From Vicugna vicugna (Eukaryota), in NCBI GenBank assembly GCA_013265495.1, contig MU057744.1, positions 1,130,356-1,194,355 of the forward strand: 64,000 nt of DNA, written 5' to 3'. Positions 455 through 53,720 of this stretch are shown here, piece by piece. The translations under genes were made by a program, and so were the position numbers. Under the pieces are notes generated by a model. That model saw nothing but the letters and a program-made list of their open reading frames with translations, did no database searches and had not been told where the DNA came from. Positions within the stretch are counted from its first letter, which is position 1. Every line of letters begins with the position of its first letter.

Positions 455-625
455 TCAGAATGAATTATACACTTCAGCTTAGAGATTCGATGAGTTTTAA
501 CCAAAGAGTAAGTAGGTATCATGTCCCCATTCAAGACAGAGTTTCCATCGTCCCCAAAAGTTCCCTCTCGCTCCTTGGCTGTGCTGCCCACCCCACTCCC
601 GGCCCCAGGTAACCATCCGTCTTCC
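455..625 (-). mobile_element. Ancient L1M (L1MB/ME-type) 3' end fragment
   Basis: tttccatcgtccccaaaagttccctc...ccccactcccggccccaggtaacca resembles the antisense of old L1M 3'UTRs. Confidence 0.6.
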
Positions 626-1229: not shown

Positions 1230-1350
1230 GGGGAGGGGATAGCCCAGTGGTAGACTGCGTGTGCCTAGCGTGCACAATGTCCTCGGTTCAATCCCTAGTC
1301 CCTCCATTAAATAAATAAAAACATAATTACCTCTACCCAACCCCTCCCCC
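1230..1350 (+). mobile_element. tRNA-derived SINE (camelid Vic-1 type)
   Basis: A box (tagcccagtgg), B box (ggttcaatcc), A-rich linker and taattacctc tail shared with the other copies in the window. Confidence 0.9.
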
Positions 1351-1669
1351 CATCCTCATATTTTTGAAAGCTTCATCAAAGTGAAAATAAACAGAAAAAT
1401 GCTACAGGTATTTGGTTCAACACTTTTTACGTCAGTTCCAAAAATACATGGTGCCATGCTGAATTTTACTCTGAAAGTAAACTAGGAAAGCAAGAACAAG
1501 CCTGCAATTCATAAATATAACATTTGTTTTTTAAAACCTTTGGTTTAAAAAATAGGCCATGATCTTGAATAGTATCTTTTTCTCCATTTTAAAAGAATTC
1601 TTTGGGTATATTCCCGATTGTTTCTGATTATCACCTCGTCAGTTTTTGTGATTATAGGCCTGTCTCCCA

Positions 1670-3018
1670 ACATACAGATGTGTGCATGTGTACATACCAG
1701 GCACATGAAGAGATGCTCAGTATCACTAATTATCAGAGAAATGCAAATCAAAACTATAATGAGATATCACCTCACACCAGTCAGAATGGCCATCATTAAG
1801 AAGTCTACAAATAATTGATGCTGGAGAGAATGCAGAGAAAAAGGAACCTCCTACACTGTCGGTGGGAATGTAGTTTGGTGCAGCCACTATAAAAAAACAG
1901 TATGGAGATTCCTTCAAAAACTAAAAATAGAGTTACCATATGATCCAGCAATCCTACTCCTAGACATATATCCAGAGGAAACTCTAATTTGAAAAAATAC
2001 ATGCACCCCAATGTTCATAGCAGCACTATTTACAACAGCCAAGACATGGAAACAACCTAAATGCCCACTGACAAATGACTGGATAAAGAAGTTATGGTAT
2101 ATTTATACAATGGAATACTACTTAGCCATAAAAAAGAATAAAATAATGCCATATACAGCAACATGGGTGGACCTGGAGATTGTCATGCTAAGTGAAGTAA
2201 GTCAGAAAGAGAAAGATAAATATCACATGATGTCACTTATATGTGGAATCCAAAAAAAAAATGACACAAATGAACTACTTACAACAAAGAAACAGACTCA
2301 GACATAGAAAACAAACTTATGGTTATCAAAGGGGAAAGGGGGGATAAATTAGGCGTTTGGGATTAACATAAACACAATACTATATATAAAATAGACTGGG
2401 GAGGGTACAGCCCAGTGGTGAAGCACATGCTTCGCATGCAGGAGGTTCTAGGTTCAATCTCCAGTACCTCCTCTAAAAATAAATAAATGAATAAACCTAA
2501 TACCTCCTCCCTCAAAAAAAAATTTTAACAGATTAAACAACAAGCATTGGGAACTATAGTCATTATCTCATAATAACTCTTAATGGAAAAGAATCTAAAA
2601 AAGAATAGGTTTATATATGTGTGTGTGTATAACTGAATCACTTTGCTGTACACCTGAAACATTGTAAATCCATTATACTCCAATTAAAAAGTGAAAAAAA
2701 TATGAGACAAATGAACTTATTTACAAAACAGAAAGACTCACAGAGACAGAAAACAAACTTATGGTTACCAAAGGAGAAGGGGAGAAGGGATAAATTAGGA
2801 GATTGGAATTAGCAGACACAAATTACTATATATAAAACAGATAAACCACAAGGTCCTACTGTGCAGCACAGGGAGCTATATTCAATACCTCGTAATAATC
2901 TACAATGAAAAAGAATATGTAGATATATATGTGTAAGACTGAGTCACTATGCTGTACACCAGAAACTGACACAACATTGTACATCAACTACACTTCAATT
3001 AACAACAACAACAAAAAA
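1670..3018 (+). mobile_element. 5'-truncated L1 (ORF2 C-terminus plus two tandem 3'UTR copies) with a nested SINE
   Basis: ORF2 peptides [19 protein letters not shown] and [22 protein letters not shown] gcctgtctccca at 1658-1669 and 3019-3030. Confidence 0.95.
2398..2525 (+). mobile_element. tRNA-derived SINE nested in L1 3'UTR
   Basis: gggagggtacagcccagtggt...ggttcaatct...cctaatacctcc interrupts the L1 3'UTR. Confidence 0.9.
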
Positions 3019-3459
3019 GCCTGTCTCCCAGTTTGGTTATTCAGCAAAGGACCAGAGCAAGCTTACTTTTGCAGTTGTTATTGAATTTAAAATATCAGTT
3101 ATGGATCATGCAGCTCTACAATTTTCCTGTCTAGTAATCCTCTTAATGCCTATTGCTATTCTACATTCATTAAATCCAAAGCTTTAGCAATAATGATACA
3201 TACCCCTCGATGCAACAGTGAACACTGTTTTCAGAGATGGTGTTTTAACCATACATTCTTTCATCTGATGGGAGGTGTCGTAGGACAGAGTGATGAGTTC
3301 TCCTCATTTCAATCACTGTTCGTGGCAAGGACTCTAACCCCCAAAAAGCAAATCTGTATGAGTGAACTGAATGAATGAATGCTTCTTTTCGAAGGATGTC
3401 CTCCCTCCCTCCCTCACCCCACCCCCTTGTAATCCAGAGTCCAGATACTTTGACTCACT

Positions 3460-3740
3460 CCATGTGTATGTTACACCAGGCGAGGCGGATGCTGCTGGAC
3501 AAGACAGGTGAGTTCTCTACCTGCGCGAAACTTACATTCCAGCAGGAAGAGACAGGGAAAAGGCAAACAGATAAATCAGAAAGCCAGCAGGTAACGTGAG
3601 GCGTGACCTGAGGACAATAAAACAAAGCCGTATGATGGGGTAATGGAGGCAGGGCATTTGAGTGGCTGGAGGTGGACTCTCTAAGGAGGGAACGTTGAAG
3701 ACCAGACCTGAATGGGAGGTCTCCATAAAGTGGAGATTAT
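3460..3740 (-). mobile_element. L2 fragment
   Basis: acaagacagg...cttacattccagcagg...agaccagacctgaatg resembles antisense L2 3' region. Confidence 0.55.
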
Positions 3741-4675
3741 CCCAGACGGGACTGACCTTGACCCTGACTCTTGTGCAGTCACAGCAGGGCTCCTTGCTGC
3801 CCATCAAATACACCACGCTTGCATTTCCCTCATGGCACTTACAACCACCCAAATGATCTGATTGGTCTGCGTACGTACTCATTTTTTGTACCCTTTCACC
3901 AGACTACTGTCTTCATAAAGGCTTCGTGTAGGATATCGGAGCCTGGGCAAAGGTACAGATGATCACCTGTCAGTCTGAATACACGAAAGTTATAAATCAA
4001 CCTAACACGTTGTTACCTAGGATATGTTATAACCTCCAACTTTGACAAGTAAACAATTGTGATGACAAAACAGAAATGTTTTCATGTGGCTGCAGGACAG
4101 CAAAATACAAAAGACGACAGCATTTAACCATTATTGCACCTGTCTGGGTACAATGTTGATTGGCTGATGATTTTGGATGTGTAATAAAGAGACAGAGAGC
4201 TAACACATTTCCTGTATATTTAGCCCATAAAACTTTGCCTTCATTTCAGCAAGAGTACCAATTATGTTGTTTAAGCCAGATGTCCACAAATTGTGTTCTA
4301 TTGACAAAAGATTAAAAAAATTAAATTGAATGACATTCAAAGTATACACAATTTGAATATATTTTCATAAAATGTAAATTATGTAAAAATCAATATAGTA
4401 TATTTATCTTTCACTGGTTTTTGATGTTTTCAAAAGAATTATCTAAAAGAAGGCAAAATGCAGAGGACAATGACAAGATTTTAATCAAACTTAAATCAAG
4501 CTAAAGGTTTTTATTTTTTGGTAAATATTACTACCTTATTTTAATAAAATATTTTCATAAAAATTGTTCACAAGTTTAGTATTCAATATCGATCTAGTTG
4601 CCAGTATGAAGAATCAGTATTACCCTTCATTCATGTTATATCTACCTATTTTCAAATTTAAGACCTGTATGAATT

Positions 4676-4834
4676 TTTTTAACATTTTTTATTGATTTAT
4701 AATCATTTTACAATGTTGTGTCAAATTCCAGTGTAGAGCACAATTTTTCAGTTATACGTGAACATATGTATATTCATTGTCACATTTTTTTCTCTGTGAG
4801 CTACCACAAGATCTTGTGTATATTTCCCTGTGCT
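4676..4834 (-). mobile_element. Young L1 3' tip
   Basis: T-run followed by tttattgatttataatcattttacaatgttgtgtcaaattcc; flanked by tatgaatt repeats (4668 and 4835). Confidence 0.9.
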
Positions 4835-5282
4835 ATGAATTGTTTAATGTTGCTAAAGGGTCCTCCATTACCCTATCCAGTTGCTGAGAATACGCAGGAC
4901 AGTATTTCATCCAGAACCATAAATCGGAAAACAAAAGGAAATGAGACATTACGTGTTTGCAACTACTTAGAAATAATACTTTACAACGCGAAAACCTAAT
5001 ATGTACATGCTGTCGGAAAGGAAGAATGTGTCTTTTCACCAATTTGTCTTTTCTCTTGCCTGAGCACTTCCGAACTCAAATCTTCCCTGTGCTGAGAAGC
5101 AGTGTCCAGGAGCCATGCAATCTGCAGACCTTCAGAACGTTCCAACAGGGCTGCCTTTGCTTTGAGGATACAGAGCATGAGAGCTGCTTCCCTGAAGCTT
5201 AAATACATAAATCAGAGACTGGAGTTTCAGAGTTATAGGATATGCTACAGCAGTGCTAAATAGCAGATTTTTCAGGGACAGG

Positions 5283-6545
5283 ATTTTATTTTATTTTTAA
5301 AATGTTTTTACTGAAGTATAGTTGATTTACATTGTTGCATTAAATTCAGGTGTACAGCACAGTGTTTCATATATACATACATATTCTTTTTCATATTGCT
5401 TTCCATTATAGTTTATTACAAGATATTGAATATTATTCCCTGTGCTGTACAGTAAGACCTTGTTGTTTATTTTACATATAGTACTTTGTATCTGCTAATC
5501 CTAAACTCTTAATTTATCCCTCCCCTACCCCTTTTCCGCTTTGATAAACATAAGTTTATTTTCTATGTCTGAGTCTGTTTCTTTTTTGTAAATAAGTTCA
5601 TTTGTATCATATTTTTAGATTCCACATCTAAGTGATATCATATGATATTTGACTTTCTCTCTCTGACTTACTTCACTTAGTGTAAAAATCTCTAGGTCCA
5701 TCATTGTTGCTGCAGATGGCATTATTTCATTCCTTTTTATGGCTGAGTAGTGTTCCATTGCATAAATATACCATGACTTCTTTATCCAGTCATCTGTCAG
5801 TGGACATTTAGGTTGTTTCCATGTCTTGGCTGTTGTAAATAGTGCTTCTATGAACACTGGGGTGCATGTATCTTTTCAAAGTCGAGTTTACTCCATACAT
5901 ATGCCCAGGAGTGGGATTGCTGGATCATATGGTAAGTCTATTTTTAGTTTTTTAAGGAACCTCTGTACTGTCCTCCATAGTGGCTGCGCCAATTTACATT
6001 CCCACCAACAGCGTAGGAAGGTTCCCTCTTCTCCACAGCCTCTCCAGCATTTATTTGTAAACTTTTGAATGATGGCCATTCTGACTGGCATGAGGTGATG
6101 TCTCATTGTGGTTTTGATTGGCCTTTCTCTAATAATTTCCCACATTGAGCATCTTTTCATGTGCCTATCGGCCATCTGGATGTCCTCTTTGGAGAAATGT
6201 CTGTTTAGGTTTTCTGCCCATTTTTTGATTGGGTTATCAATTTTTTTGTTATTGAGTTATATGAGTTGTTTGTTTATTTTGTAAATTAAGCCCTTGTTGG
6301 TCACATCATTTGCAAATATTTTTTCCCATTCTGCATGTTGTCTTTTCGTTTTGTTCATAGTTTCCTTTGCTGTGCAAAGGCGTCTTAAGTTTGATTAGGT
6401 CCCATTTGCTTATTATTACTTTTATTTCTATTGCCATGGGAGGCTGACCTAGGAGAACATTGCTACGATTTATGTCAGAGAATGATTTGCCCGTGTTCTC
6501 TTCTAGGAGTTTGACAGTGTCATGTCTTATATTTACGCCTTTAAG
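5283..6545 (-). mobile_element. 5'-truncated L1 (ORF2 C-terminus plus 3'UTR)
   Basis: Minus-strand ORFs 5615-5857 and 5888-6175 translate to L1 ORF2 C-terminal motifs. Confidence 0.95.
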
Positions 6546-15158: not shown

Positions 15159-15309
15159 TATACACCAAATTTTTAACAGTGCTTAAACCACGCAGTAGAC
15201 TCAGAAAGCGAGGCCAAGTCCATTTTCACTTTACGCACCTAAATACTGCTGAAGAGTTTTACAATGAGGATGTCCTACTTCTGTCCTTACTTTTCTCTTC
15301 TCTTTTTGG

Positions 15310-16689: not shown

Positions 16690-17300
16690 ATAGTTTGGGA
16701 CTTGCAGACACACACTCCTGTATATAAAATAAGTGAAGTAAGCCAGAAGGAGAAAGAAAAATACCATATGAGAGCGCTCATTTGTGGAATCTAAAAAACA
16801 AAAACAAACAAACAAAAACAAAGCATAAATACAGGACAGAAATAGACTCATGGACAGAGAACACAGACTTGTGGTTACCAGGGGGGTAGAGGGTGGGAAG
16901 GGATAGATTGGGATTTCAAAATTGTAGAATAGATAAACAAGATTACACTGTATAGCACAGGGAAATATACACAAAATGTTATGATAAATCAAATAACAGA
17001 GAATGTGACAATGAGTGTGTATATGTCCATGAATGACTGAAAAATTGTGCTGAACACTGGAATTTGACACAACATTGTAAAATGATTATAAATCAATAAA
17101 AAATGTTAAAAAAATAGGTAAACAGCGAGGTCCTACTGCACAGCACAGGGAACTGTATTCAGTGCCTTCTAATAGCCTATAATGAAAAAGAACATGAAAA
17201 GGAATATATATATGTGTGTGTGTGTGTAACTGAATCACTATGCTGTACACCAGGAATTGACACAACATTGTAAACTGACTCTACTTCAATTAAAAAAATT
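16690..17300 (+). mobile_element. L1 3'UTR with a younger L1 3' end (~16735-17110) nested inside
   Basis: Outer 3'UTR breaks at tatataaaataagt and resumes at aaaataggtaaacagcgaggtcctac. Confidence 0.88.
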
Positions 17301-28999: not shown

Positions 29000-29300
29000 A
29001 GGCAAGTTTCCCCACGCTGTACGGCGTGGATGATCAGCCTGCAGGAGCAGACAGGAGACTTCAGCTGCCTTCTGTTAAGATACACGATAAAGAAACATGC
29101 ACCAAGGCAAAACAATGCTACTGTACTCATTTTTTTTGAAAAATAGTTACGTTTCATAAAAATATATTCCTTGTGTGAAATGTATGTGACCACATAATGG
29201 GTTTGCTATGGTTTTTCTAAAATGAATTAATAAACATTCATCAAATTTCTCAGGTTTCATATGGTAAATATTGAGAGGTACAACCTTGATAAATAAGTCT
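29000..29300 (+). mobile_element. Charlie1-type hAT DNA transposon fragment
   Basis: gcaggagcagacaggagacttcagctgccttctgttaag...aaaacaatgctact...aaatgaattaataaac...atggtaaatattga matches the recalled Charlie1 3' portion. Confidence 0.75.
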
Positions 29301-34465: not shown

Positions 34466-35487
34466 TATTCACCAGTTCTCTCTGACCAGTTGTCTCAACT
34501 GCCACAAGCCAGGGTTTGTTCTCAGGGCTGAGGTCCCCAGAAAGCCACTTCAGCAACACCTGGGAACTGGTGGGAGATGTCAATCCTGAGCGCCTACTGA
34601 GACAGGAGGGAGGGGGCAGGGCGCAGCCGTTACAGGAATGGCACAGCCATCAGCACCAAGATGGCAGAAGGGTCAGCTCCCAGTAGACCTGAGCGTCAGC
34701 GCACACTCACTGGGTACAGCAACTGCCAAGTGACACTCCCACAGGTGCCAGCGCAGTTTCCAGGCTGCCCATGGAAGGTCAAAGGGTGAGTGACGGCCCA
34801 TCCTGGGCTCCCAGCCCTGCCCCAAAGCAGTGGGAACAGTCCTCCCACTTGTCAGCATATGATGTCACCGAGCCCAGAAAACTAACCACCCCCTCTTACA
34901 CATGGTGTAAGCTCATTTTTCCTAGCGGACCCCACGGTCTGAGGCTGTGAAGCCAAGGACCCTCACCTGGTGGGGCGCATCCCAGGGACTCTCCTGAGAC
35001 CTGGGACATGGCCCTCCTCTCGCCCCACATGTTTCCTGTATCACTCTCTGGGGTTAAACACGCACTCCAGGTGATTCTGTCTCCTGCTCAAGTTTGAGAA
35101 CCACTCCCTGCGGCAGATTTCAATGGCTAGAGTGATAGATTTCAAAAGGGGAGTTTAGGGGTCATGCAGCCTATCCCGTACTGGTAGGAAGTTCGGGGCC
35201 AGGAGAAGCAGGCGAGGCCTGGTGCTCACGGTTTACTCTTTACTCTTCAGCTGAAGAATTTTCAAAGCACCAAGCCACCTCCCCAGTAGAACCAGCTCAT
35301 ATCCCAGTTTTAAAGATGAGGAAATCGAAATGCCAGAAGTGTTCAATGAGTCGTCAAGGGGAGCTGGGATTAAACCCCAGTGCTCCCAAATCCCCTGCCC
35401 GTGGCCCCACGCTCGGTCTTCAGGTAATATGATACAGTGGACAGGTGAGCTGGGTGGCTGTCCACTTCCTGCATCAAAACCCAACAC

Positions 35488-36068
35488 GGGCGGAGGGTGT
35501 GGCTCAGGGCTAGAGTGCAGTGCTTAGCATACACGAGGTCCTGGGTTCAACCCCCAGTACTGCCATTAGAATGATAATAATAATAATTAATAATAAATAA
35601 TAAAAATAATAATATTAATGCCATTTGCAGCAACATGGATGGACCTGGAGATCATCATTCTAAGCGAAGTAAGTCAGACAGAGAAAGACAAATGCTGTAT
35701 GATATCACTTATGTGTGGAATTAAAAAAAATGACACAAATGAACTTATTTACAAAACAGACACAGACTCCCAGACACAGAGGAAAGGACTTAGGGTTACC
35801 AGGGGTTAAAGGGGGTGGGAAGGGATAAACTGGGAGCTCCAGATTTGCACCTCTTGGGGAGTGATGGAAATGTCAGCTCTCCTGATGGCAGCGGTGGCTT
35901 CACGGGTGTAGACATCTATCAAAACTCATCAAATTGTGCATCTAAAATATGTGTAGTTTACTGTACAGAAATTATACCACAATAAAGTTGTTTTTTTTAA
36001 ATTACAATAATAAATAAACCTAATTACCACCCCCTACAATTAAAAAAATTTTTTAATTAAAAAAAAAC
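35488..36068 (+). mobile_element. tRNA-derived SINE split by a chimeric L1 3' end (~35600-35995)
   Basis: SINE head 35488-35575 and tail taaacctaattaccacccc at 36015-36035; the L1 3'UTR between them switches to an L1MD/ME-type tail at ~35850. Confidence 0.88.
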
Positions 36069-36879
36069 CCAGTGAGAACCAACACAGCTGATCACCCCAG
36101 GAGGTGTGCAGCTCAGACTGGCTCCGTTTGGTGTGAGGACAAGGACTGCCGGAGGGCGTGGCCATGCTCAAGAAGCTGGAATTTGTGACTCACGCTGTGT
36201 GGACCCAAGGACCTCGGCCCAGCCCACGAGGGAGGCTTGCAGGCTCCTCTCCTGGTCTGAGCAGCCCCAGGCCTCTTCTGCATCCGCAGGCCTGCCCCTG
36301 GCATTCCTGCCGCTAAGTCCCTCTGAAAGCCTTGGCCCAGCTTTGCATTCTTTCCATTCTTAGGCCGAGGCTATTTGCAGTCTCTCCACCTGTCACGTGT
36401 GTGTTAGGCTGCCAAGGGCGAGTGCGGCTCCAGGCTTATTTAGAACACCATGCTTTCTTTGAATGTGCCATTTTAGGGGCCACTTGACGAATCTTCACAG
36501 CCTTTCAGCTGTGCCGCTGCACTTGGGTTGGTGACTTACATTGACTTAGGTACGTATTAAGCTAGTTTCTTGTAGGGCCTGAATTATTTCCCCGCTTGCA
36601 AATGAGAAATCTTGACAACTGACTAACTGGACAACATGCGGTTGAGTAAAGAAGATACTGTATGAGTCCAAACAATACAGAAGTTACAGAAGGATTATTA
36701 TAGAAGAAATGCCAGTGGGAAGGAAGCAAGTAAACATAGTGGGATAGAAAGTAAGAGGAAAACTTAACGTTCAGAGTTGCAATTTACATTTGTAAATGGA
36801 AAACAGTCGCCAGTACAATGACTTACATGGGAAATCGTGGACGGTATTGATCCACAAAGAAAGCAGATTGTATTGTAGA

Positions 36880-39260
36880 CCCAAGTGTGAAACTCCTTGA
36901 GGGTAACGTGGGGAGAGTCTAGGAGACCTCGGGTCTAGTGATGAGGTTTTAAATACAGGACCCAAAGTACAATCTACGGAAGAAATGGTAAGTTGAACTT
37001 CATTAAAATAAAAAAAAAAACTTCTGTGAAAGTTACTATTAAAAGAATGAAAAGACAAGTCACACACTGGGAGGAAATATTTGCAAAAGACATCTCTGAT
37101 GAAGGACTGTTACCCAAAATATACAAAGAACTCTTAAACTCAACAATGAGATACCAGCAGATGCGTCAGAAAACAAGACATTCAGACGGCAGACAAGCAT
37201 ATGGAAAGATGTTTTCCATCATATGTCATTAGGGAATTGCAGATTAAACCAATAATGAGATACCACCACATACCTGTTAGCATGGCTGACATCCAAAGCT
37301 CTGACAGCACGAAACGCTGGCGAGGGTTAGAGCAGCAGGAACTCTCACATTCAGTGCTGGTGGGAGGGCACAGCAGAGCAGCCGCTTTAGAGGACACCTG
37401 GAATTTCTTATAAAACTGAACATACTCGTATCATATGATCCGAAAATAGTGTTTACTGCTTATCCAAATGCTTAAAAAACTTAGGTCCATATGAGAACCC
37501 ACATGTGAATGTTTATGGCAGTTTTATTCATAATTGCCAAAACTTGGAAGTAAGCAAGATGTCCTTCAGGAGGTGGATGGCTGAGCAAATTGTGGTCCAC
37601 CCAGACAAGGGAGTACTATACAATGAAAAAAAGAAATGAGCTATCAAGCCATAAAAAGACACGGAGAAACCTTAAAAGCGTGTTACTAAGTGAAAGAAGC
37701 TAATTAAACGTACAAGCTTCTGCACAGCAAAGGAAACCTAAGTAAAACACAACGACAACCTAAGGAATGGGAGAAAATATTTGCAAATGATGTGACTGAC
37801 AAAGGTTTAATTTCCAGAACATATAAACAGCTCATACAACTTAATAAAAAAAAAAAAGAAAGAACCCAATCCAAAAATGGGCAGAAGACCTAAACAAGCA
37901 ATTCTGCAATGAAGACCTACAAATAGCCAATAGGTACAAGAAAAAATGCTCAATATCACTAATTATCAGAGAAATGCAAATCAAAACTACACTGGGCTAT
38001 CACCTCACACCAGTCAGAATGGCCATCATGAAAATGTCCACAAACAATAAATGCTGGAGAGGCTGTGGAGAAAAGGGAACCCTCCTACACTGCTGGTGGG
38101 AATGCAGTTTGGTGAAGCCACTGTGGAAAACAGGATGGAGATTCCTTTAAAAATGGAAAACAGACTTACCATATAATCCAGCAATCCCACTCCTGGGCAT
38201 GTATCTGGAGAGAACTCTAATTTGAAAAGACACATGCATCCCAATGTTTATAGCAGCACTATTGACAATAGCCAAGACATGGAAGCAACCTAAATGTCCA
38301 TCGACAGATGACTGCATAAAGAAGATGTGGTATATTTATACAGTGGGATACTATTCAGCCATAAAAAAGAATAAAATAATGCCATTTGCAGCAACATGGA
38401 TGGACCCAGAGATCGTTGTTCTAAGTGAAGTAAGCCAGAAAGAGAAAGAAAATATCATACGATATTTTGGAGTCTTAAAAAAAAAAAGACACAAATGAAC
38501 TTATCTACAAAACATACTAAACAATCTTGTAGTTACCGGGGGAAAGGGGATGGGAAGGGATAAATTTGGCAGTTTGAGGTTTGCAAATGTTAGCCACTAT
38601 ATATAAAAACAGATTAAAAAAAACAAATTTCTTCTGTATAGCACAGGGAACTATATCCAATATTTTGCAATAACCTTTAATGAGAAAGAATATGAAAATG
38701 AATATATGTATGTATATGCATGACTGGGACATTGTGCACCAAAAATTGACACACTGTAACTGACTATACTTCGATAAAAAAAGAAAAAAAAATGAATATA
38801 AAAAAAGAAGCCAATCTGGAAAGGCCATGTACTGTGTGATTCTGTATGACATTCTGGAAAAGGCAAAACTATTGAGACAGTAAAATGATCAGTGGCTGGC
38901 AGGGGTCTGGGGAGAGGGTGCAATGACCAGGTGGAGCACAGGACATTTTTAAGGAGGGAAACTATTCAGTGGGATGTTATAAGGATGGACACAGGTCATT
39001 ATATACATTTGTCAAAGTCCCTAGAATATGCAGTACCAAATACGAATCCGAATGTGACGATGGACGTTATAGTTACCAATAACGTGTTAATGTTGGTGCA
39101 TCAGTTGTGAGAAATGTTTCACACCAATTGTAAGATATTAATAGTAGGGGAAACTATTACTAATAGGGGAAATAGGTGAGGAAGTAGATGAGAAACCTCT
39201 GTATTGTCAGCTGAATTTTTCTGCAAACTTAAAACTGCTCAAAAAGTAAGCCCTATTAAT
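36880..39260 (+). mobile_element. Ancient L1MB/MC ORF2-3'UTR interrupted by a young L1 (37702-38805)
   Basis: Old element breaks at gaaagaagctaat and resumes at aaagaagccaatctgga; the inner element has ORF2 peptides and a young 3'UTR. Confidence 0.9.
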
Positions 39261-39744
39261 TAAAAGATTATATAAACTTACAGTAAAATAAAGGATTAAC
39301 CAGGCTTGAATCTCCTACCTTTGGATTTCTGGTTATGTGGGGTCATACATTTTCCTTACTATTTAAGTGACTGCTAGTCAAACTTCCTATTACTTTAGCT
39401 GAAAGGGTCCTAACGTAATGAAGTTTTTCTATTTGTTCTTGGTAGTGGTGTTTTTTTTTTTTAATTACACCTTTTACATCGCTCTGTACTGCTTTAACAC
39501 AAGCATTCTCAATGAAAGGGAGAAAAACATCCTACTCTTTTTATGTATAAAACATACATACACATACAGTACCTAAACTAATATACAGATTCTCTCTCGT
39601 ATTTCAGTTACATGGGGGAGGAGCAGGTTTCTGGGGGGAAAAGGCTAAAAAAGACTCCTGGGGGAGTAATAATGAAAAGCGGGTTGAGAAATACTGCTTT
39701 CACAAAAAAAGATCTGACATGTAGGTACAGCATGATGCCTTGAA

Positions 39745-39870
39745 CATTTACTTTGGTGTCGGAAGACCAGCTATATGACCTTGGTAAAGTCACCTACATC
39801 CTTTGGCTACTTTTTTTTTTGTCTATAAAATATGGAGATTGCACTGATGGTCTCTAAACACATATTCAAG
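39745..39870 (+). mobile_element. MIR fragment
   Basis: ccagctatatgaccttggtaaagtcacct...gtctataaaatatgg. Confidence 0.6.
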
Positions 39871-41060
39871 CGTTAACAGTCCATACTTCAAAAAATTTTA
39901 AAATACGACATTTTCTAGCAGTAGAATGCAGTGTTATTGGAAGCAATCACAGAGCCAACAGCCCCAGGTAACCGGACAGTGAGGAAAACAACAGAAAAAT
40001 AAATCATCTTGTCCACGTTGGAACTGATAACTACTTGTCTTTAACTTTCTGTGTACAGGAAGCTCTTCATCTGCTAGAAAACCTAACCCTATTCATCTTG
40101 CTGATGGAGATAGGGAGACGCTGAGAGCCAAATGCAGCTGGTCCAAGGGCGGCTGATGGGTGACAGGGCTGTTGCCAAGGTACGTGACAGCTCACCTCTC
40201 TCCCCCCTCATCCTCCCTCTTCCCCGAAACACACACGCATATAGACACAGTCAGGTGCACATCTGTTTGCCTCAACCAATATGCAATTAGAAACTGTGCT
40301 TTGTCCTGGAGGTAAAAAGAAGAGCTTGTGGTTGGAGAGAGAGCAAGAGTCACAAAGAGGAGGGAAAGGCTGGACCAGCTTCTGTTTAGAGGCTCTGGCA
40401 TGTGAAGGGGTCTTGAGAATGAAGCCAGGGAGGTGAAAGGACTTTTCAAGGACGGAGACTCTCGGTTCAAGCACAGCTCTGTGGTGTTCCAGATGAGGAA
40501 GGTGGCAAGCAAGCCCGCCCCCTGGCCTCTGCACAGAATCAGAATCCTACGACACTCTGACATCCGAGTCCTAGGAGCACCGGGGCTCAGAGGTTGCTGT
40601 CCTACCGATTGGCAGTCACTGAACGAGGCTCCAGGGCTGCTCTGCCAGACAAGCAGCAGCGCAAAGGCAGGTCTGGCACCGTGAGGACGTGATGCTAACA
40701 GATCGCTCTATGAGCATTTGACAATCCCTTCTTAAATTCTCCAAAAACCACTGGGGGTTGCTTTGAAGGGGGCTGAGACACCATTGTTGTCCAGATGAAG
40801 CTGTCAAACCAGTCACTGTGTGGGTTCAGATTGATACCCTATTTCATCCTGTCCACAGGGGACAGAGCTTTAACTTGGGAAAATAAAAGTCTTCTGGAGG
40901 TGGAAGGTGGTGATGGATACACAGCAAGATGAATGTACTTTGTGCCACTGAAATCCATATTTAAAAATGGCTCAAATAGTAAAATTTAAGTTTCAAACAC
41001 ACACACACTAACTCCCACAGAAATACTAACTGCTAATCATCTTGTATGACCAGAGTTGTC

Positions 41061-41177
41061 TTTTTTTTTTAATTAATTTTATGCAAGTTTTTTTTTAAAT
41101 GGAGGTACTGGGGATTGAACCCAGGACCTCGTGCATGCTAAGCACGTGCTCTACCACTGAGATACACCCTCCACCCA
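41061..41177 (-). mobile_element. tRNA-derived SINE
   Basis: ggaggtactggggattgaacccaggacctcgtgcatgctaagcacgtgctctaccactgag. Confidence 0.93.
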
Positions 41178-41438
41178 TCTAGTCTTTTTTTTTTTTTAAA
41201 TAAAATTAATGAAAACGGAGGTCTGAGAAAGGAAAACTGGATGAGTATTTCTGGGACTTTGTCATCGGTAAAAATGACCTCCAATGTCCTCCAGGTTCTG
41301 AGACACTGAGCTTCCATAATTCCGTGGTGTCATCTGACAGGGATACTTGCAAAGTAGGAAGGTTTGGGGATGGATAATGAAGCAAAGATAAAACGGGAGG
41401 TTTCGTTTTCCATTTTATCATTTCAAGTTGGGCTCAGC

Positions 41439-41975
41439 TGTAGTTCTAAATGCCTCTGTCAGCCACCTAGAAGCAGTCTTCTGGGGGACGAGGCACAACG
41501 TGAAGCGGTGAGTGTTTCTTCCCCTCCGTTTGCATTCATTCTGCCTTTTCTGGGCAGAACGTCTCATCTCTCTGGTGCCCCCCAGCCCCCTTCCTCTGAC
41601 TCTCAGCCGATGCCCTTGCCTCCTCCACTTTGCTGTAAAAGCCACCGGACGGGAGCGCCTCCTCTTCCTGGGACGAGGTCCACGGCCACTGACATCTGTG
41701 CACGTCTGCTCCTTAGTGGAGCCCCTGTCCCTTCCTCAAAAGCTCTGGTCCCAGTTCCTTCCTCTTTCACAGAAACCTGACTCCAAATTTCCCACTTCTG
41801 CCCCGAATCATCGCTCGCCCGCTTCCTTCTGCATTCCAGCCCGCGACAAGAAAATTTGCTCTAATACGTCCTACTTTGCGGTTTTCCTTTGTTTCTTGCA
41901 CTTTTACGAATAAAGCTGTTTCTTTTTTCTGAATCCAGTTTCCCCCTTCACCACTTCGAGAGCTCGCCACTGTAT
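41439..41975 (+). mobile_element. Probable ancient ERVL-type solo LTR
   Basis: Starts tgtag; internal gtgagt donor (41509); AATAAA at 41909 followed by a U5-like tail. Family not assigned. Confidence 0.5.
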
Positions 41976-42149
41976 TTCTATTCCTTTAGTCATTAGCTGG
42001 GAGTAACAGCGTGATCGGTATGTTCACATCTGAAGTTACACACGCCTTCATCTTCCTCCCCGATGATGCAAGGACCTTAGACCCCTGTGATGCTGAGCAC
42101 CTGTTTCCAGTGTGTATGCTATTGCTGTTATGCCTTTACGTTAATCTTG

Positions 42150-42970
42150 ATTTTGTTTATTGTGGCAAAATATACACGACATAAAATTTTCCATTTTCAC
42201 CAGTTTTTTAGCGTGCAGCTCAGCGGCACTAAGCACATTCACGTTGTTGTGCAAACATCGCCACTTTCCATCTCCAGAAACTTTCCATCTTGCAAACTGA
42301 AACTCTGCACCCATTTTTTTAAATGTGTTTTGAGGGGAGGTAATTAGGTTTATTTACATTTACTTTTATTGTAGTGTTTAATGGCAGTACTGGGGATTGA
42401 ACCCAGGGCTTTGTGTGTGCTAAGCATACATGCTGCCACTGGGCTGCACCCTCCCCTCTTCTATACTCATTAAACAGTCACTCTCCACTGCCTCCTCCCC
42501 CAGCCCCTGGCCACACCCACTCTGCTGTCTATCCGCATGAATCTGACTTCTCTAGGGACCTCCTATACATGGAAGTATGTGGTATCTGTTCTTTTGTGTC
42601 TGGCTTATTTCACTCTAAATAATGTCCTCAAAGTCACCTCTGTTGGAGCATGTGTCTGAACTGCCTTCCTTTTTAAGGATGAAGTATATATTTCACACTT
42701 TGCTTGAATATTCATGTGCCAATAGACACTCGAGTTGCTTCCACCTCTTGCCTACTGTGAATAATGTTGCTGTAAACATCGGTGTACAAGTATCTCTTGA
42801 ATCCCTGCTTTCAGTTTTGTGGGGCATACACTAAACCATGAGATAGTTCTACAGTTAATTTTCTGAGGACTCTCCACGCCGGTTTCCCCAGCGGCTGCAC
42901 CGTCTTACGTGCCCGTCCACAGTGTGCAGGGCTCCAGTTTCTCTGCATCCTCACCGACACCTGTGATTTT
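42150..42970 (-). mobile_element. L1MB-type 3' end with nested SINE (42313-42456, minus)
   Basis: attgtggcaaaatatacac...ttccatctccagaaactttccatcttgcaaactgaaactctg...cagcccctggc. Confidence 0.85.
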
Positions 42971-43247
42971 CTGTGTGGGAGGTGGCTGGTTAGATTTCCT
43001 TTTAAGCAACAAGATGCTTCCATATTCAAATTTTGTGAAATGCTAATGATGGGAAAGCACCGTAGAGACGATGAAGTCTTCCTTTCTGCGTGGAATTTTC
43101 CCAGAACGTTCTTTGGTGCTCTGCAAGCAGTCCTGAGTGCCCGGACACCGATTTCCCTCCTAATCCGGGGCCTCTGTAAGATCAAGTGACTTTGGGGTTA
43201 TAGAGGGAAAATGAAATGGTGTTCCAGTTACCTTTGTGATCTTCAGG

Positions 43248-43345
43248 GCAGGACTTGGCTAGCTTTCACCGTGAAGGGCTGGATAGTAGATATTTTAGAC
43301 TTTGTTGGCTACATGAGGTCTCTGTTCCAACTACTCAACTTACTG
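43248..43345. mobile_element. MER58A-like hAT MITE fragment
   Basis: gaagggctggatagtagatattttagactttg...ggtctctgttccaactactcaac. Confidence 0.75.
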
Positions 43346-43814
43346 TACTTATAATAAGAAAATTATAAAAAAAAGAGAGAGAAAATGATCATACTTAGAA
43401 CAATATTCTACCGTATGTATATTCTCTCTGATTTTTCAACCATCAAGACATTATCACTATTACTGTTTCCTGCAGATATGTAGGTGATCTTCAAAAAGAT
43501 ATTTTTGCCACTTTTTTGTGAGTGCTTTCTTGCATTCCTACTCCAAAGTGCACTCCTTTCAGTGAGGGTTTATCAGTGCGATTTCTCTCAGATTTCCTTC
43601 TTCCTGAAAATGTCTTTAATTTACTCCCTTTAAAGTGCCGTAGCTTTAAGACTTTAACGCACTTTACTGCCGTCTCCTGGCTTCTGTGGTCGATGCTGAG
43701 GAATTGAGACTCTAACTCTTGTGTCTTTGCTGCAAACCGTCTGGGTTTTCTGACCGAGAGCCCTTTCTCTTTGCTGTGCTGTGGTTTCACCAGGAGGTGT
43801 GTGGGTATGGATTT

Positions 43815-44458
43815 CCTTCTTTTTCTTTTTTTCTTTTTCTTTATTTTAAACACCTTTATTGTGGTATGATTCCTGTACATAAACTGCACATATTTCAGAT
43901 GTACAGTTTGATGAATTTCGATTCTGTCGAAGCCACCACCCATGAAGCCACCGCCACAACCAAGACCGCTAACATTTCCATCACTCCTCAAGAGCTGCAA
44001 GTTTCAAGTTCCCAATTTATCCCCTCCCACCCGCTTTACCCCATGGTAACCGTAAATTTGTTCTCTATGTCTGTGACTCCATTTCTGTTTCATAGATAAG
44101 TTCTTTCGTGTCCTTTAAGATTCCACATATGAGTGATATCATATGGTATTTGTCTTCCTCTGTCTGGCTTACTTCATTTAGTATGAAAATCTCTAGTCCA
44201 TCCATGTTGCTGCAAATGGCATTATTTTATTCTTTTTTATGGTATTCCATTGTATAAATATACCACGACATCTTTATCCAGTCACCTATGAATGCACACT
44301 TGGGTTGTTTCCATGTCTTGGCTACTGTAAATAGTGCTGCTGTGAACACTGGGGTACATGTATCTTTTCAAATTACAGTTTCCTCCGGATATACGCCCAG
44401 GAGTGGGATTGCTGGATCATATGGTAAGTCTATTTTTAGTTTTTTGAGGAATCTCCAT
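43815..44458 (-). mobile_element. 5'-truncated L1 with chimeric L1MD/ME-type tail, inserted in ancient L1M
   Basis: Young ORF2 end/3'UTR at 43996-44458 joined to an old-type tail at 43850-43995; tggattt on both flanks. Confidence 0.88.
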
Positions 44459-44754
44459 TGGATTTTTTTTTTCAGTTATCCTGCTTGAAATTCAGTACAT
44501 TCCCAGAATCTGAGGACTAGGACCTCCCATCTGTTGGGACAATCTAATGTAATTACTTCCTTGACTTCTGCCCCCGCCCATCTCCGTGTGGTCCTCCTAC
44601 AACTCCAACTGGTCATATGTTAGACTGCCGCACACCCTCCGTATTTTTAAAGCTTTCTTTCATATTTTCTCTCTCTTTCTCTCTATGCTGCATGGTGGTT
44701 TCGTTTGTTTGTTTGCACATCAGCCTCTTGGCTATTTCTTTTCTCTTCAGGATG

Positions 44755-46145: not shown

Positions 46146-47357
46146 TGTAACCGAGCAGGAGGACCCTGGGGGGCCTTCCAGGGTCAGACCCTCCCCCATG
46201 CCCTCTGCGGGAGCTCCTCTCTGAAGCACCCAGATCATAATATCTCATGTGTATTTCCTGAGTTTTTCAGATGCTTAAAACCACCTCCAAAGTGAAGAAA
46301 TAACCATCTGATGATGGAGAGCACGTGGCCCCAGACCTTCTGGGGCCCAGGGGTGACAGTGTTGCCCGCCCTGTGACCTCCACGTCAGCCACCAGAGGAC
46401 TGTGCATGAGCTGATCACACACCCTGTGACCCCCCCCACCTGGCCTTAAATATGCTTTGCTGAGACCCTTCAGGGAGTTCAGGGTTTTCTTGGGCATAAT
46501 CCACCCTGTCCTCCTTGCTCGGCCCTGCAGTAAACCTTTCTCTGCTCCAAACTCTGATGTTTCAGTTTGTTTGGCCTCACGGTGCGGTGGGCACATGAAC
46601 TTGCCTTCAGTAACAGTTTTGATGAACCAGCGCAGGTGTCTGTGCCGTGGCAGGGCGACCCTCGCCGGGGCAGCCCCTTGCCTGTGTCCCAGCAGCTGCC
46701 GGAGCTCAGCTGACTCCAGGGAATCGGGAAGGACTGTCCCCGACAGGCGCTGGCTGCCCTATGGCATGAGGCTGTGTGAAGTCAAGAAACTGCTGGAGCT
46801 ACGGTCGCCGGCATTGTGAGTCGCCTGGGGGTGAGTGGCTCCGGCTCGCACAGGCCGAGAACCCTCTCCATCCATCTGGGCTCATTCCCACCAGGAAGGG
46901 AGCCGCTCTGGGGGGCTCCCTCTCGGGAGCTGGGCCCACCTGTTTGGAGGCCTCCATCTGGGAGTGGGAGTGGGATTTGGGGGCCACACCTTGCCTGATC
47001 TTTTGTTTATGGGAAAATGTTGCATGTATGTGTGTGTCAGACTTGCATTGACCAGTTGAGACGTCTTTGAGTAACAGGGCTCGGTGTGACGGCACCAGAG
47101 TGTCCTTCCCTACTGCACTGGCCTCGCCTGGGGCGGAGCGTAGCCTCGGTCCTCCATTCAGCTTCGTCTCTGCTGGGGCACTGGGGGGGTTCACCCCTTG
47201 TGGGCTGACAGGGCTCTGGTTAGGAGTCTCCCTTTTGGGGCCCGGGAACTGTGACCCAGAGGGACCGTTTTGAATTATTGTTTGCTGGATATTTGATACC
47301 ATCGGCTGTGAATAAGTGTGGACAATCAGAGAGCTCTGTTCCATCTTATATATCGTC

Positions 47358-51294: not shown

Positions 51295-52790
51295 ATTCCT
51301 CTGGGAAAGGGGAATGAGGTCTACTCTGTGTATTAAAGTCCTGGTCGTCGCTCCTCCAACTACTCCTGATCAGGTCTGGTGGCCTCAAAAGGGTGGAACA
51401 AAGGACAGGGATCTTAATCATACAAGACTTGGATCCAGTACTTGAAATGTAGGAACATTTTCAGTTTGGGGACCATCCCATAGAGGCAGGACTGCACCCC
51501 ATTTCAGCAGCAAGTGGCCAGAGCGGTCGCCGCCCCGTTCCCTGAGAGGTTTGGGGAAGGCTGAAGCAGGATTGGAGGCTGAGACCAAGTCCCCCTGAAA
51601 CCAGGCTCCTCTGCTGAGTTGATGGCTAACTCGCTGTCCACAACATCGTTCCCCTTCTTGTCCAACACCTCCTCTCCTCGACATTGAGGAGAATCAAAGG
51701 AAAGGGGGAAATCGTAACTGAGGAGGACGCTGGGGGGCCTTCCAGGGTCAGGCGCCTCCCCCACGTCCTCTACTGCAGCTCCTCTCTGAAGCACCCAGGT
51801 GGTAGTGTCTCTTTTCCTGAGGTTTTCTGATGCTAAAACCACCACCAAAGGGAAGAACATTACTTATGATCAAGGGCACGTGGCCCCCAGACCTTCCGCC
51901 TGGGGGTTGGTGGTGTTGACGGCCTGTTCCCTTCACATCAGCCAATCAGAGGCTGATTGCATGAGCTGATCACACACCCCGAGACCCCCTCCCTCACCTG
52001 CCTTTAAATATCCTTTGCTGACACCCTTTGGGGAGTTTGGGGTTTTCTCGGGTATGAGCCACCCCGTCCTCCTTGCTCGGCCCTGCAGTAAACCTTTCTC
52101 TGCTCCAAACTCTGATGTTTCAGTTTGTCTGGCCTCACGGTGCGGCGGGCACACGAACTCGCCTTGGGTAACAGCTTCAGGCTCCTATATGTACCTTGGG
52201 CCCACCCTGATAATCCAGAATAATCTTCTGCTCTCCAGACCCATGGCCTTAATTACATCTGCAAAGCCCCTTTTGCCGTGTAACAGCATATGCACAGGCC
52301 CTCAGTATTGGGACATATTTGGCTTGCCACAATTTATTTCCAGCTGTGTCTAACCTGCTATTAAATTACTTTGAGTTTTAATTTTCAATTATTGTAGGGG
52401 TTTTTTTAAGTTTTAATTTATTTCATTATTTAAAAATGTTTTAAATTATCTTACTTTATATCATGTTTTTAATTCCCTTCTATTTCTTTAAATATATTAA
52501 GTGTATTTTATTTTCTGATCTTGATAATCCCAGTATCAGAAATGTTAGTCTGATGTTGATGCCGAATTTTTCCCTGCAAGCTCATTTTTCTGCCTTCCTT
52601 CCTGCAGTGTTTTGTGAGTTTTGAACCTGAGCGCACACTCTTTTGAATTTGATTGATGGGAATTTTTCAACGCCAGTGTTTAAGGTGTCTGGTCCTTCAG
52701 GTAACATTTGGGTTTACTTCTGCCAGGTGACTGTGGGCACCAGCAGTTGATGGTCCATTTGGTTTCCTTTGGCTAAAACTATATTAAGGC

Positions 52791-53218
52791 GGGTGTAGGG
52801 GGCGGCTCAGTGGTAGAGCGCATGCTTAGCATGCACAAGGTCCTGGGTTCAATCCCCAGTACTTCCATTATAAAACAAATACACAAAACAGAAACAGACT
52901 CCGAGACATAGAAAACAAACATGGTTACCAGAGGCCGGTGGGGGAAGAGTGGGTGGGAAGGGATAAACTGGGAGTTTGAGATTTGCAGATACTAACTACT
53001 ATATACGAAATAGATAAACAACAAGTTTAGTCTGTACAGCACAAGAAACTCTATTCAATATCTTGTCATAATTTATAAGGAGAAAGAATTTGAAAACAAA
53101 TATACGTCTGTATATGTGTGGCTGAAACACGATGCTGTACACCAGAAATTGATACAACGTTGTAAACTATACTTCTATTAAATAAATAAATAAAGCTAAT
53201 TACCTCCCCTCCCAAAAT
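52791..53218 (+). mobile_element. tRNA-derived SINE split by an L1 3'UTR (~52880-53180)
   Basis: Perfect TSD aaactatattaaggc at 52776-52790 and 53219-53233 encloses SINE head, L1 3'UTR and SINE tail. Confidence 0.92.
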
Positions 53219-53233
53219 AAACTATATTAAGGC

Positions 53234-53720
53234 ATAATTAGCATATAATAATGTACACACTTAAAATGTGTAATTCGATAAAGCTGACATATGTGTGTAT
53301 CTGTGAAACCATCGCCTCAATCAAGACACTGACCGTGTCTATCACCCCTCCAGGTTCCCTTGTGCCATTTGTAATGTCCCATTTCTGCCCTTCCCCATCC
53401 TCAGCAAACGCTGATCTGCCTTCCGTCTCGGTGGCTCACATTTTCTAGAATCTTCTATAAGTGGGATCATGCAGTAGGTTCTCTTTTTCAGTCTGGCTTC
53501 TCTCACTTGGCATGATGATTTTGAGATTTACTCACATTATTATGTGGAGGAAGCATTCACTTCTCTTTGGGGGGGTGATCAGTTTTATTTACGTATTTAA
53601 CGGGGGGACTGGGGATTGAACCCAGGACCTCATGCGAGCTAGGCATGTGCACTACCACTGAGCTACCCGCTCCTCTCCTATTTCTTTTTATTACTGAATA
53701 ATATGAATAATAATCTCTTG
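53234..53720 (-). mobile_element. Ancient L1MD/ME 3' end (continues at 56689-57170) with nested SINE (53568-53672)
   Basis: ctgtgaaaccatcgcctcaatcaagac...ttcccttgtgcc...tctggcttctctcactt. Confidence 0.8.

Follow-up and report, generated by a model that had tools for sequence, protein, structure and literature searches.

The best reading of two L1 copies (A and B) in the window, the whole stretch of 64,000 nucleotides that was analysed, is that they belong to a scattered, old L1 family whose ordinary 3' end was replaced by the end of a far older L1, a reading that we hold with modest confidence. To the limit of the contig data, both are shown to be dead, 5'-truncated members of an L1-derived family that is dispersed and goes back to a single chimeric source. 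No description of such a chimeric-tail family was found in the literature searched, most subscription papers and Repbase Reports lying outside its scope.

Structure of the two chimeric copies

Copy A extends over about 35612-35993 on the forward strand and copy B over 43848-44458 on the reverse strand, both at the positions given by the first-pass annotation. The body of A (35612..35849, +) is a 5'-truncated L1 that comprises ORF2's end and the first part of the 3'UTR with its G-rich tract; it is 76-87% identical to 12 other L1 copies and matches a profile, which itself includes A, with an E-value of 7.6e-68. The body of B (43996..44458, −), also 5'-truncated, holds the last ~460 nt of the ORF2 end and the 3'UTR up to the junction, and is 78-85% identical to 12 other L1 copies; it was also placed in an alignment and a tree of L1 copies. 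The copies extend 240 nt (A) and 460 nt (B) upstream of the junction, and "young", when used of such L1s, is a relative term, the copies being about 10% diverged.

The switch from L1 3'UTR to tail falls at the identical base in both copies, 35849/35850 in A and 43996/43995 in B. The borrowed tail, 144-148 nt long, occupies 35850..35993 (+) in A, with an AATAAA at 35981-35986, and 43848..43995 (−) in B, with an AATAAA at 43860-43855; the own last ~200 nt of the ordinary L1 copies are absent from both. Self-BLAST matches A to B over 397 columns with 79% identity, and the identity amounts to 119/141 (84%) in the tail and 186/229 (81%) in the body. Positions, breakpoint and tail identity agree with the initial claim that two L1 copies in opposite orientation share one junction and one tail. 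Among the 15 younger-type L1 3' ends in the window that reach the junction position, a set that excludes the non-comparable rows near 15160 and 22093, the tail is found in two. Compared with the 3' ending found in 11 ordinary copies, it scores no better, or hardly better, than shuffled sequence: some of 200 shuffles reached 21 of the 22 scores. In the tree of 13 bodies, where A fills less than half of the columns, A and B are left in an open fork and form no supported pair, and only 2-3 private sites are shared by the two bodies in the 13-row alignment.

It could be argued that A and B arose by local duplication or gene conversion between them, as they lie 8 kb apart and have minority letters in common at 35892 and 35898, or by two independent fusions to different fossils. 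Both proposals are largely refuted and highly improbable. The flanks of A and B are unrelated (scores reached by 39/50 and 8/50 shuffles), the copies diverge by 16-19%, and other loci carry the same junction; tails taken from different fossils would be about 65% alike, against the 84% seen. The situation in which only these two copies existed, with homologous flanks, is thus excluded by the further loci in contigs and by flank scores at shuffle level.

Insertion sites

Copy A lies inside a tRNA-type SINE, putatively a camelid one. The head of this host SINE (35487..35570, +), aligned with 14 sister copies, departs from their majority at 11 of 82 sites; the Rfam tRNA model is passed by nine sister SINEs and not by the host copy. 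Behind A, the remainder of the host, which together with a 3' target-site duplication candidate spans 36006..36069 (+), continues as it does in the sister SINEs at 29300 and 61147, which are intact. The 5' duplication candidate (35589..35600, +) matches 36006-36017 at 12/12 positions and is situated within an AT-rich microsatellite (35574-35619), in low-complexity DNA. This location of A between direct repeats inside the SINE bears out the suggestion that the tail was mobile after a lineage-specific SINE had inserted. The AATAAA of A is present and its A-tail is eroded, with no clear poly(A) behind it, just a T-run and a few A. Contig runs X5 and X13 have zero depth over 36008-36021, although this does not prove the absence of A from them.

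Copy B is followed by an A-rich tail and a 3' target-site duplication candidate (43809..43847, −), recognised in the sequence and by TRF. The candidate itself, at 43821-43809, pairs with 44472-44460 imperfectly, through six identical bases and A-rich DNA. Each copy has insertion marks of its own, with candidate duplications of the individual kind that the first pass had proposed to look for. The flanks of B may resemble an old L1 ORF1 that reads through the insertion site; Pfam returned no family for three translated pieces of these flanks, and no weight is placed on the resemblance. Taken together, the copies display 5' truncation, AATAAA, an A-rich tail and a target-site duplication, the hallmarks of a retroposon mobilised by L1.

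Ancient origin of the tail

The tail is a homolog of the end of a strongly diverged L1, as the first pass had proposed. An ancient L1 3' end is located at 53219..53575 on the reverse strand, and its part at 53219-53353 matches the tail with an nhmmer E-value of 1.7e-7, a score that 0/200 shuffles reach. Identity to this segment is 90/133 for the tail of A and 84/131 for that of B (64-68%), and the ancient element departs from the family majority at 43/138 sites (about 31%). It is recognised as an L1 3' end because the ORF2-end profile built from the younger copies finds its upstream part with an E-value of 2e-5. This element is a relative of the donor and not the donor itself. A second, weaker homolog of the tail lies at 461..555 (−), with an E-value of 0.0058 for a three-sequence profile. 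The donor subfamily may be L1MD/ME; an L1MD-like donor is plausible, and L1MC is also possible. The ancient element is collinear with A from the ORF2 end through the tail (E 2.5e-14), so that the join is roughly in register; similarity just upstream of the junction is weak, being reached by 22-102 of 1000 shuffles.

A join in register would also fit if the tail came, not from a dead fossil, but from a second L1 lineage, old in type and still active, through a template switch between two RNAs during reverse transcription, and mouse L1 inter-family recombinations, as described in PMC3600994, took place mostly between simultaneously active families. Nevertheless, such an origin is improbable, since those old-type 3' ends that the window does contain stand about 31% off the family majority and none of the junction rows listed is a well-supported loose end whose upstream part is non-L1.

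Dispersal and age of the family

Four public whole-genome contig sets were aligned to 210 bases around the junction and tail, with 3135-3700 contigs per run; four other listed runs, with next to none of the query words, were left out. The junction is spanned, with 31 or more letters on each side and 82-83% identity, by at least two loci besides A and B (records 1/25 and 26; 3 of the 32 listed rows). Short motif scans had no match in metagenome contigs, prokaryote genomes or viral contigs, collections in which this host would not be expected and whose silence is therefore uninformative. The alignment starts at or before 35849 in 16/32 listed rows, and in 28/32 the contig itself ends at most 11 letters from the 5' start of the alignment, as is expected where many copies share a sequence. 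In run X13 the L1 3'UTR precedes 34 contigs that start at 35843, and in each run 16-24 contigs have, at 35849 and at a distance from their own ends, a variant letter. At the other end of the tail, each listed row counts 54-77 contigs ending, at 35992 or 35993, in A-runs followed by unlike DNA. Over 35970-35993, where the ancient copy differs at six sites common to A and B, the listing has no position at which the majority departs from A.

Fossil copies as the main source of this depth are argued against by the finding that just 2-3% of the aligned contig material runs on into unlike sequence. In a control simulation, 20,000 fossils alone gave 2100-5600 short partial matches and 0-918 matches reaching the tail end, so that the count of tail-end contigs is not decisive by itself. 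Summed contig depth is not copy number; a rough simulation, whose contig count fits the observed one only if low-abundance branches are dropped, points to a hundred or more copies, probably the low thousands. The contig sets and the flank shuffles together reveal dispersed copies with a common diagnostic structure and unrelated flanks, and the two or more further bridging loci, along with many collapsed contigs over the tail, sustain the claim of genome-wide amplification. The subfamily had also been called active, which holds for past amplification and not for the present: the tail of A departs from the majority of the aligned contigs at 12/144 sites and that of B from the family majority at 16/142, and, with A and B 8-11% off this majority, the family is old and not active now.

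Proposed origin

The structure shows a then-current L1 joined, about 25 nt behind the G-rich tract of its 3'UTR, to the final ~145 nt of an L1 that is much older and has the same orientation. The source, presumed to be a protein-coding L1, lacked the last ~200 nt of its own and had its terminus at the AATAAA of the old element; use of this signal is suggested by the A-rich ends directly behind it. The donor was likely already dead when it was captured. A single event at the DNA level is the most probable way of joining, either by a 3'-truncated insertion into the old copy or by a deletion that joined two tandem copies where their G-rich sequences are loosely similar. L1 reverse transcription depends on the poly(A) tail and not on a specific 3'UTR, and for this reason the source could have stayed mobile. 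Retrotransposition despite a disrupted 3'UTR is noted in PMC5381506. Tens of millions of years ago, target-primed reverse transcription would then have produced hundreds to a few thousand copies. Neither a full-length member nor a source or donor locus appeared in the window or the contigs. This proposal is supported by the identity between the two tails (84%), which is on par with that of the bodies (81%) and far above the 64-68% between tail and ancient element.

Splicing is an unlikely origin of the junction, as no GT (splice donor) follows the breakpoint position in ordinary copies. Classical 3' transduction does not apply either, the L1's own last ~200 nt being missing in A and B before the extra DNA.

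The same family and tail could also descend from a non-autonomous source, an ORF1-only, HAL1-like element or an L1 with a broken ORF2, copied in trans by ordinary L1, with A and B as its 5'-truncated ends. HAL1 arose several times in mammals according to PMC5753468, and what B displays upstream of the junction is just 460 nt; however, in B a sense-strand ORF2 end and 3'UTR precede the tail, and we regard this source as less likely. On the reading of a coding L1 as source, a fuller version is offered tentatively, with considerable doubt about the whole: the carrier would be an autonomous camelid L1 lineage that discarded its own 3' end, acquired in its place, in near-homologous register, the end of an L1 long dead, and reached thousands of copies beside the ordinary lineage, with a polarity reverse to that of rodent L1 recombinants, a single donor locus that should be traceable to this day in other mammals, and no entry in repeat libraries.

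If true, the family would be a natural experiment indicating that the distal L1 3'UTR is replaceable provided that the G-rich tract is kept along with a poly(A) signal, and that dead L1 copies are reusable as 3' ends. Its importance is limited by its age and by the lack of a demonstrated host effect. In repeat annotation each copy would come out as two pieces, one a younger L1 and the other an "ancient" fragment, leading to inflated counts of ancient L1s and misdated insertions in camelid genomes.

Relation to known systems

End-swaps between L1s are known in principle, and the direction here is the less usual one. Replacement of UTRs and inter-family recombination have been reported in mammalian L1s (PMC5753468, PMC3600994 and PMC5872511), where, as here, a lineage gains a new end or motif from another, at times extinct, L1 family and then amplifies. 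According to PMC3600994, recruitment goes one way, with an older 5' terminus taken up by a young 3' end, whereas here the old part is the 3' terminus; the families in the mouse cases are a few million years apart, and the donor here is about 30% diverged from its old relative. The camelid Repbase families L1-1_Vpa and L1-2_Vpa are named in PMC6726744 and PMC10362595, and the bodies and ordinary copies probably belong to them.

As in L1 3' transduction (PMC5381506), transcription would stop at a poly(A) signal from neighbouring DNA, and this DNA is carried into new insertions; there the L1 keeps its own end and A-tract, whereas here ~200 nt and the own signal are gone and a large family results. 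HAL1 (half-L1) families, such as HAL1_Ssc, are likewise L1-derived, lineage-specific and amplified by the L1 machinery, as presented in PMC5753468, PMC5786205 and PMC6501411; they are defined by ORF1 without ORF2, and A and B, too short to tell, retain a sense ORF2 end. The gibbon LAVA element also has a piece of fossil L1 (L1ME5) as its 3' end, and stems from one traceable progenitor locus, with 1097 full-length copies (PMC5174737). LAVA is, however, SVA-derived and non-coding and carries its L1ME5 piece in antisense, unlike the sense-strand natural terminus that is joined here to an L1 itself.

Two L1 copies with a common junction and tail

In this repeat-rich mammalian DNA (64 kb, G+C 43%), L1 3′ fragments and tRNA-type SINEs are numerous. 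Two 5′-truncated L1s, copy A (35612-35993, +) and copy B (43848-44458, −), are 79% identical across 397 aligned columns. In a 14-row alignment of L1 3′ ends, the bodies of both, that is, the parts upstream of the junction, follow the ordinary L1 3′UTR past its G-rich tract, which the join leaves intact, and depart from it at the identical base (35849/35850 in A, +; 43996/43995 in B, −). Beyond this point lies a tail of 144 nt in A (35850-35993) and 148 nt in B (43848-43995), with AATAAA at its end. The first-pass annotation had described a junction and tail common to both copies, as the identical breakpoint and the identity of the tails (119/141; bodies, 186/229) confirm. Among the younger-type L1 3′ ends of the window that reach the junction position, two of 15 bear this tail and 13 continue in the ordinary way, two non-comparable rows being excluded from the count.

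Origin of the tail

A profile search of the window with the two tails returned one further clear match (53353-53219, −; E 1.7e-7), within an old element at 53219-53575 (−). Its identity is 90/133 to A and 84/131 to B, with scores exceeding 200/200 shuffles; between the tail and ordinary L1 endings, 21 of 22 alignment scores were matched by shuffles. The old element is an L1 3′ end, as its upstream part matches an L1 ORF2-end profile (E 2e-5) and it is collinear with A over 35634-35989 (E 2.5e-14); upstream of the join the similarity is weak, 22-102 of 1000 shuffles reaching it. The tail, matching this element, is thus an ancient L1's 3′ terminus, fused directly behind the G-rich tract in a register that is roughly homologous. 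The proposed L1MD/ME-type tail thus stands as an ancient L1 3′ end, whose subfamily may be L1MD/ME.

Independent insertions

As had been claimed, A lies inside a SINE (35487-36069, +), which it splits between head and tail. It is bounded by a 12/12 repeat situated in low-complexity AT-rich DNA, and its A-tail is eroded. B ends in an A-rich tail, and its flanking duplication is imperfect. The flanks are unrelated, as their A versus B scores were reached by 39/50 and 8/50 shuffles, which speaks against a local duplication; the two copies are accordingly read as independent insertions. Pfam matched no family in the flanks of B (43450-43808 and 44473-44720), which may represent a decayed L1 ORF1 continuing across the insertion site. 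A second L1 3′ fragment, with an ordinary ending (52787-53200), sits in another SINE of the type that hosts A, in its AT-rich middle, and this part of the SINE seems to be a favoured L1 target.

A dispersed family

Most of the region is contained in 20 of the 24 public runs listed, which represent two organisms. Contigs of four public runs (all contig sets) were aligned to 35812-36021 at a threshold of 80% likeness, yielding 3135 to 3700 aligned contigs per run. A and B are not the sole carriers of the junction: records 1/25 and 26 span it with at least 31 letters on each side (identity 82-83%), and their gap patterns and ends, which differ from those of B, identify them as two further loci. 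The alignment starts at or before 35849 in 16 of the 32 pieces listed, and in 28 of the 32 no more than 11 letters separate the contig's own end from the 5′ start of the alignment, as expected of assembly graphs where many copies share sequence. In run X13, L1 3′UTR precedes 34 contigs whose start is 35843. Away from contig ends, 16-24 contigs in each run have a variant letter at 35849, and ordinary L1 is seen as 216-230 contigs diverging there. In each listed row, 54-77 contigs continue past the end of the tail as A-runs and then as unlike DNA. The tail-bearing L1 is therefore a real genome-wide family and not a local oddity, with a single breakpoint, one tail type and dispersed copies bearing insertion marks. 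At 35996, 11 contigs of run X13 have a common loose end whose consensus is partly non-A (agreement 0.54); this may be noise or a sub-group carrying additional 3′ transduced DNA.

Summed depth on the tail peaks at ~11,000-14,000x single-locus depth (lowest bin, 110-200x), a sum that is inflated by overlapping contigs and is not a copy number. Simulated families match the peak at ~1000-4000 copies and 5-11% divergence, their contig count fitting the observation only with low-abundance branches dropped. When 20,000 fossils were simulated as a control, short partial hits numbered 2100-5600, the peak was 1300-5100, and 0-918 hits extended to the tail end, so that the count of contigs reaching the tail end is not decisive alone; just 2-3% of aligned contig material continues into unlike DNA, as fossil-derived hits would be expected to do. 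From depth and simulation, we estimate that the family comprises at least a hundred copies and probably low thousands.

Age

From the majority tail letters, which are biased towards A, A differs at 12/144, B at 16/142 and the old element at 43/138 positions. The bodies of A and B are 10-11% off the window majority, similar to neighbouring copies; in the tree, A and B are not recovered as a pair, and the host SINE is 13% diverged from its sisters. The subfamily had been called active, whereas these divergences point to a past amplification that dates back tens of millions of years and probably precedes the camel-llama split (16.3 Mya, PMC6726744). For alpaca, young families are absent from the listing in PMC3183009. 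Within 35874-35969, where surroundings are 50% G+C, copy A departs from the majority tail at 12 sites, nine of these changes being A/T to G/C and three the reverse, which weakly suggests GC-biased conversion. At 35892 and 35898, and at the matching B sites, both copies have C where ~90% of aligned depth has T, possibly through a sub-lineage or parallel GC-biased change.

Proposed mechanism and known systems

A then-current L1 would have fused with an older L1 copy in the same orientation to form a single source, losing its own last ~200 nt and terminating at the older copy's AATAAA. The simplest route is a DNA-level event, fusion by RNA template switch being possible; splicing is an unlikely origin of the junction, since ordinary copies have no splice donor after the breakpoint. 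The family behaves like an L1 3′-end replacement with putative autonomy, the main rival being that the source was an ORF1-only L1-derived element with an ancient L1 tail instead of an ORF2-coding L1. Of the replacement and amplification first proposed, the dispersed family upholds the amplification, apparently an old one, and the single breakpoint is consistent with the replacement.

It is established that the 5′ and 3′ UTRs of L1 can be replaced (PMC5753468). Mammalian L1 3′UTRs are described as poorly conserved apart from the G-rich tract, and retrotransposition as still possible with a disrupted 3′UTR (PMC5381506). Inter-family L1 recombination, extinct families included, is reported in mouse and horse (PMC3600994, PMC5872511). 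Mouse recruitment is termed directional, a young 3′ end acquiring an older 5′ terminus (PMC3600994), whereas here the polarity is reversed and the 3′ terminus is the older part. Gibbon LAVA likewise has a fossil L1 piece as its 3′ end, but there the piece is antisense and the element non-coding (PMC5174737). The literature searched, library consensus files lying outside it, yielded no description of this family; the camelid Repbase entries L1-1_Vpa and L1-2_Vpa appear by name alone in the sources consulted (PMC6726744, PMC10362595), and the camel transposon survey, in the part consulted, stays above subfamily level (PMC8605555; for background only, PMC6501411, PMC5786205, PMC9252281, PMC4072516).

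Other repeats

The L1 3′ ends of the window comprise at least three coexisting 3′UTR types. Copies at 17110, 49010 and 55060 constitute a clade (support 100/99) marked by a ~22-nt deletion exactly at the A/B breakpoint position, which has thus been remodelled twice. At 1698-3011, a SINE (~2393-2540) interrupts an L1 3′ end, and another L1 3′ end follows directly. Two repeats on the same strand (46157-46619 and 51721-52177), 82% alike and 5.6 kb apart, are labelled LTR-like by eye and would be solo LTRs or the termini of a decayed element.
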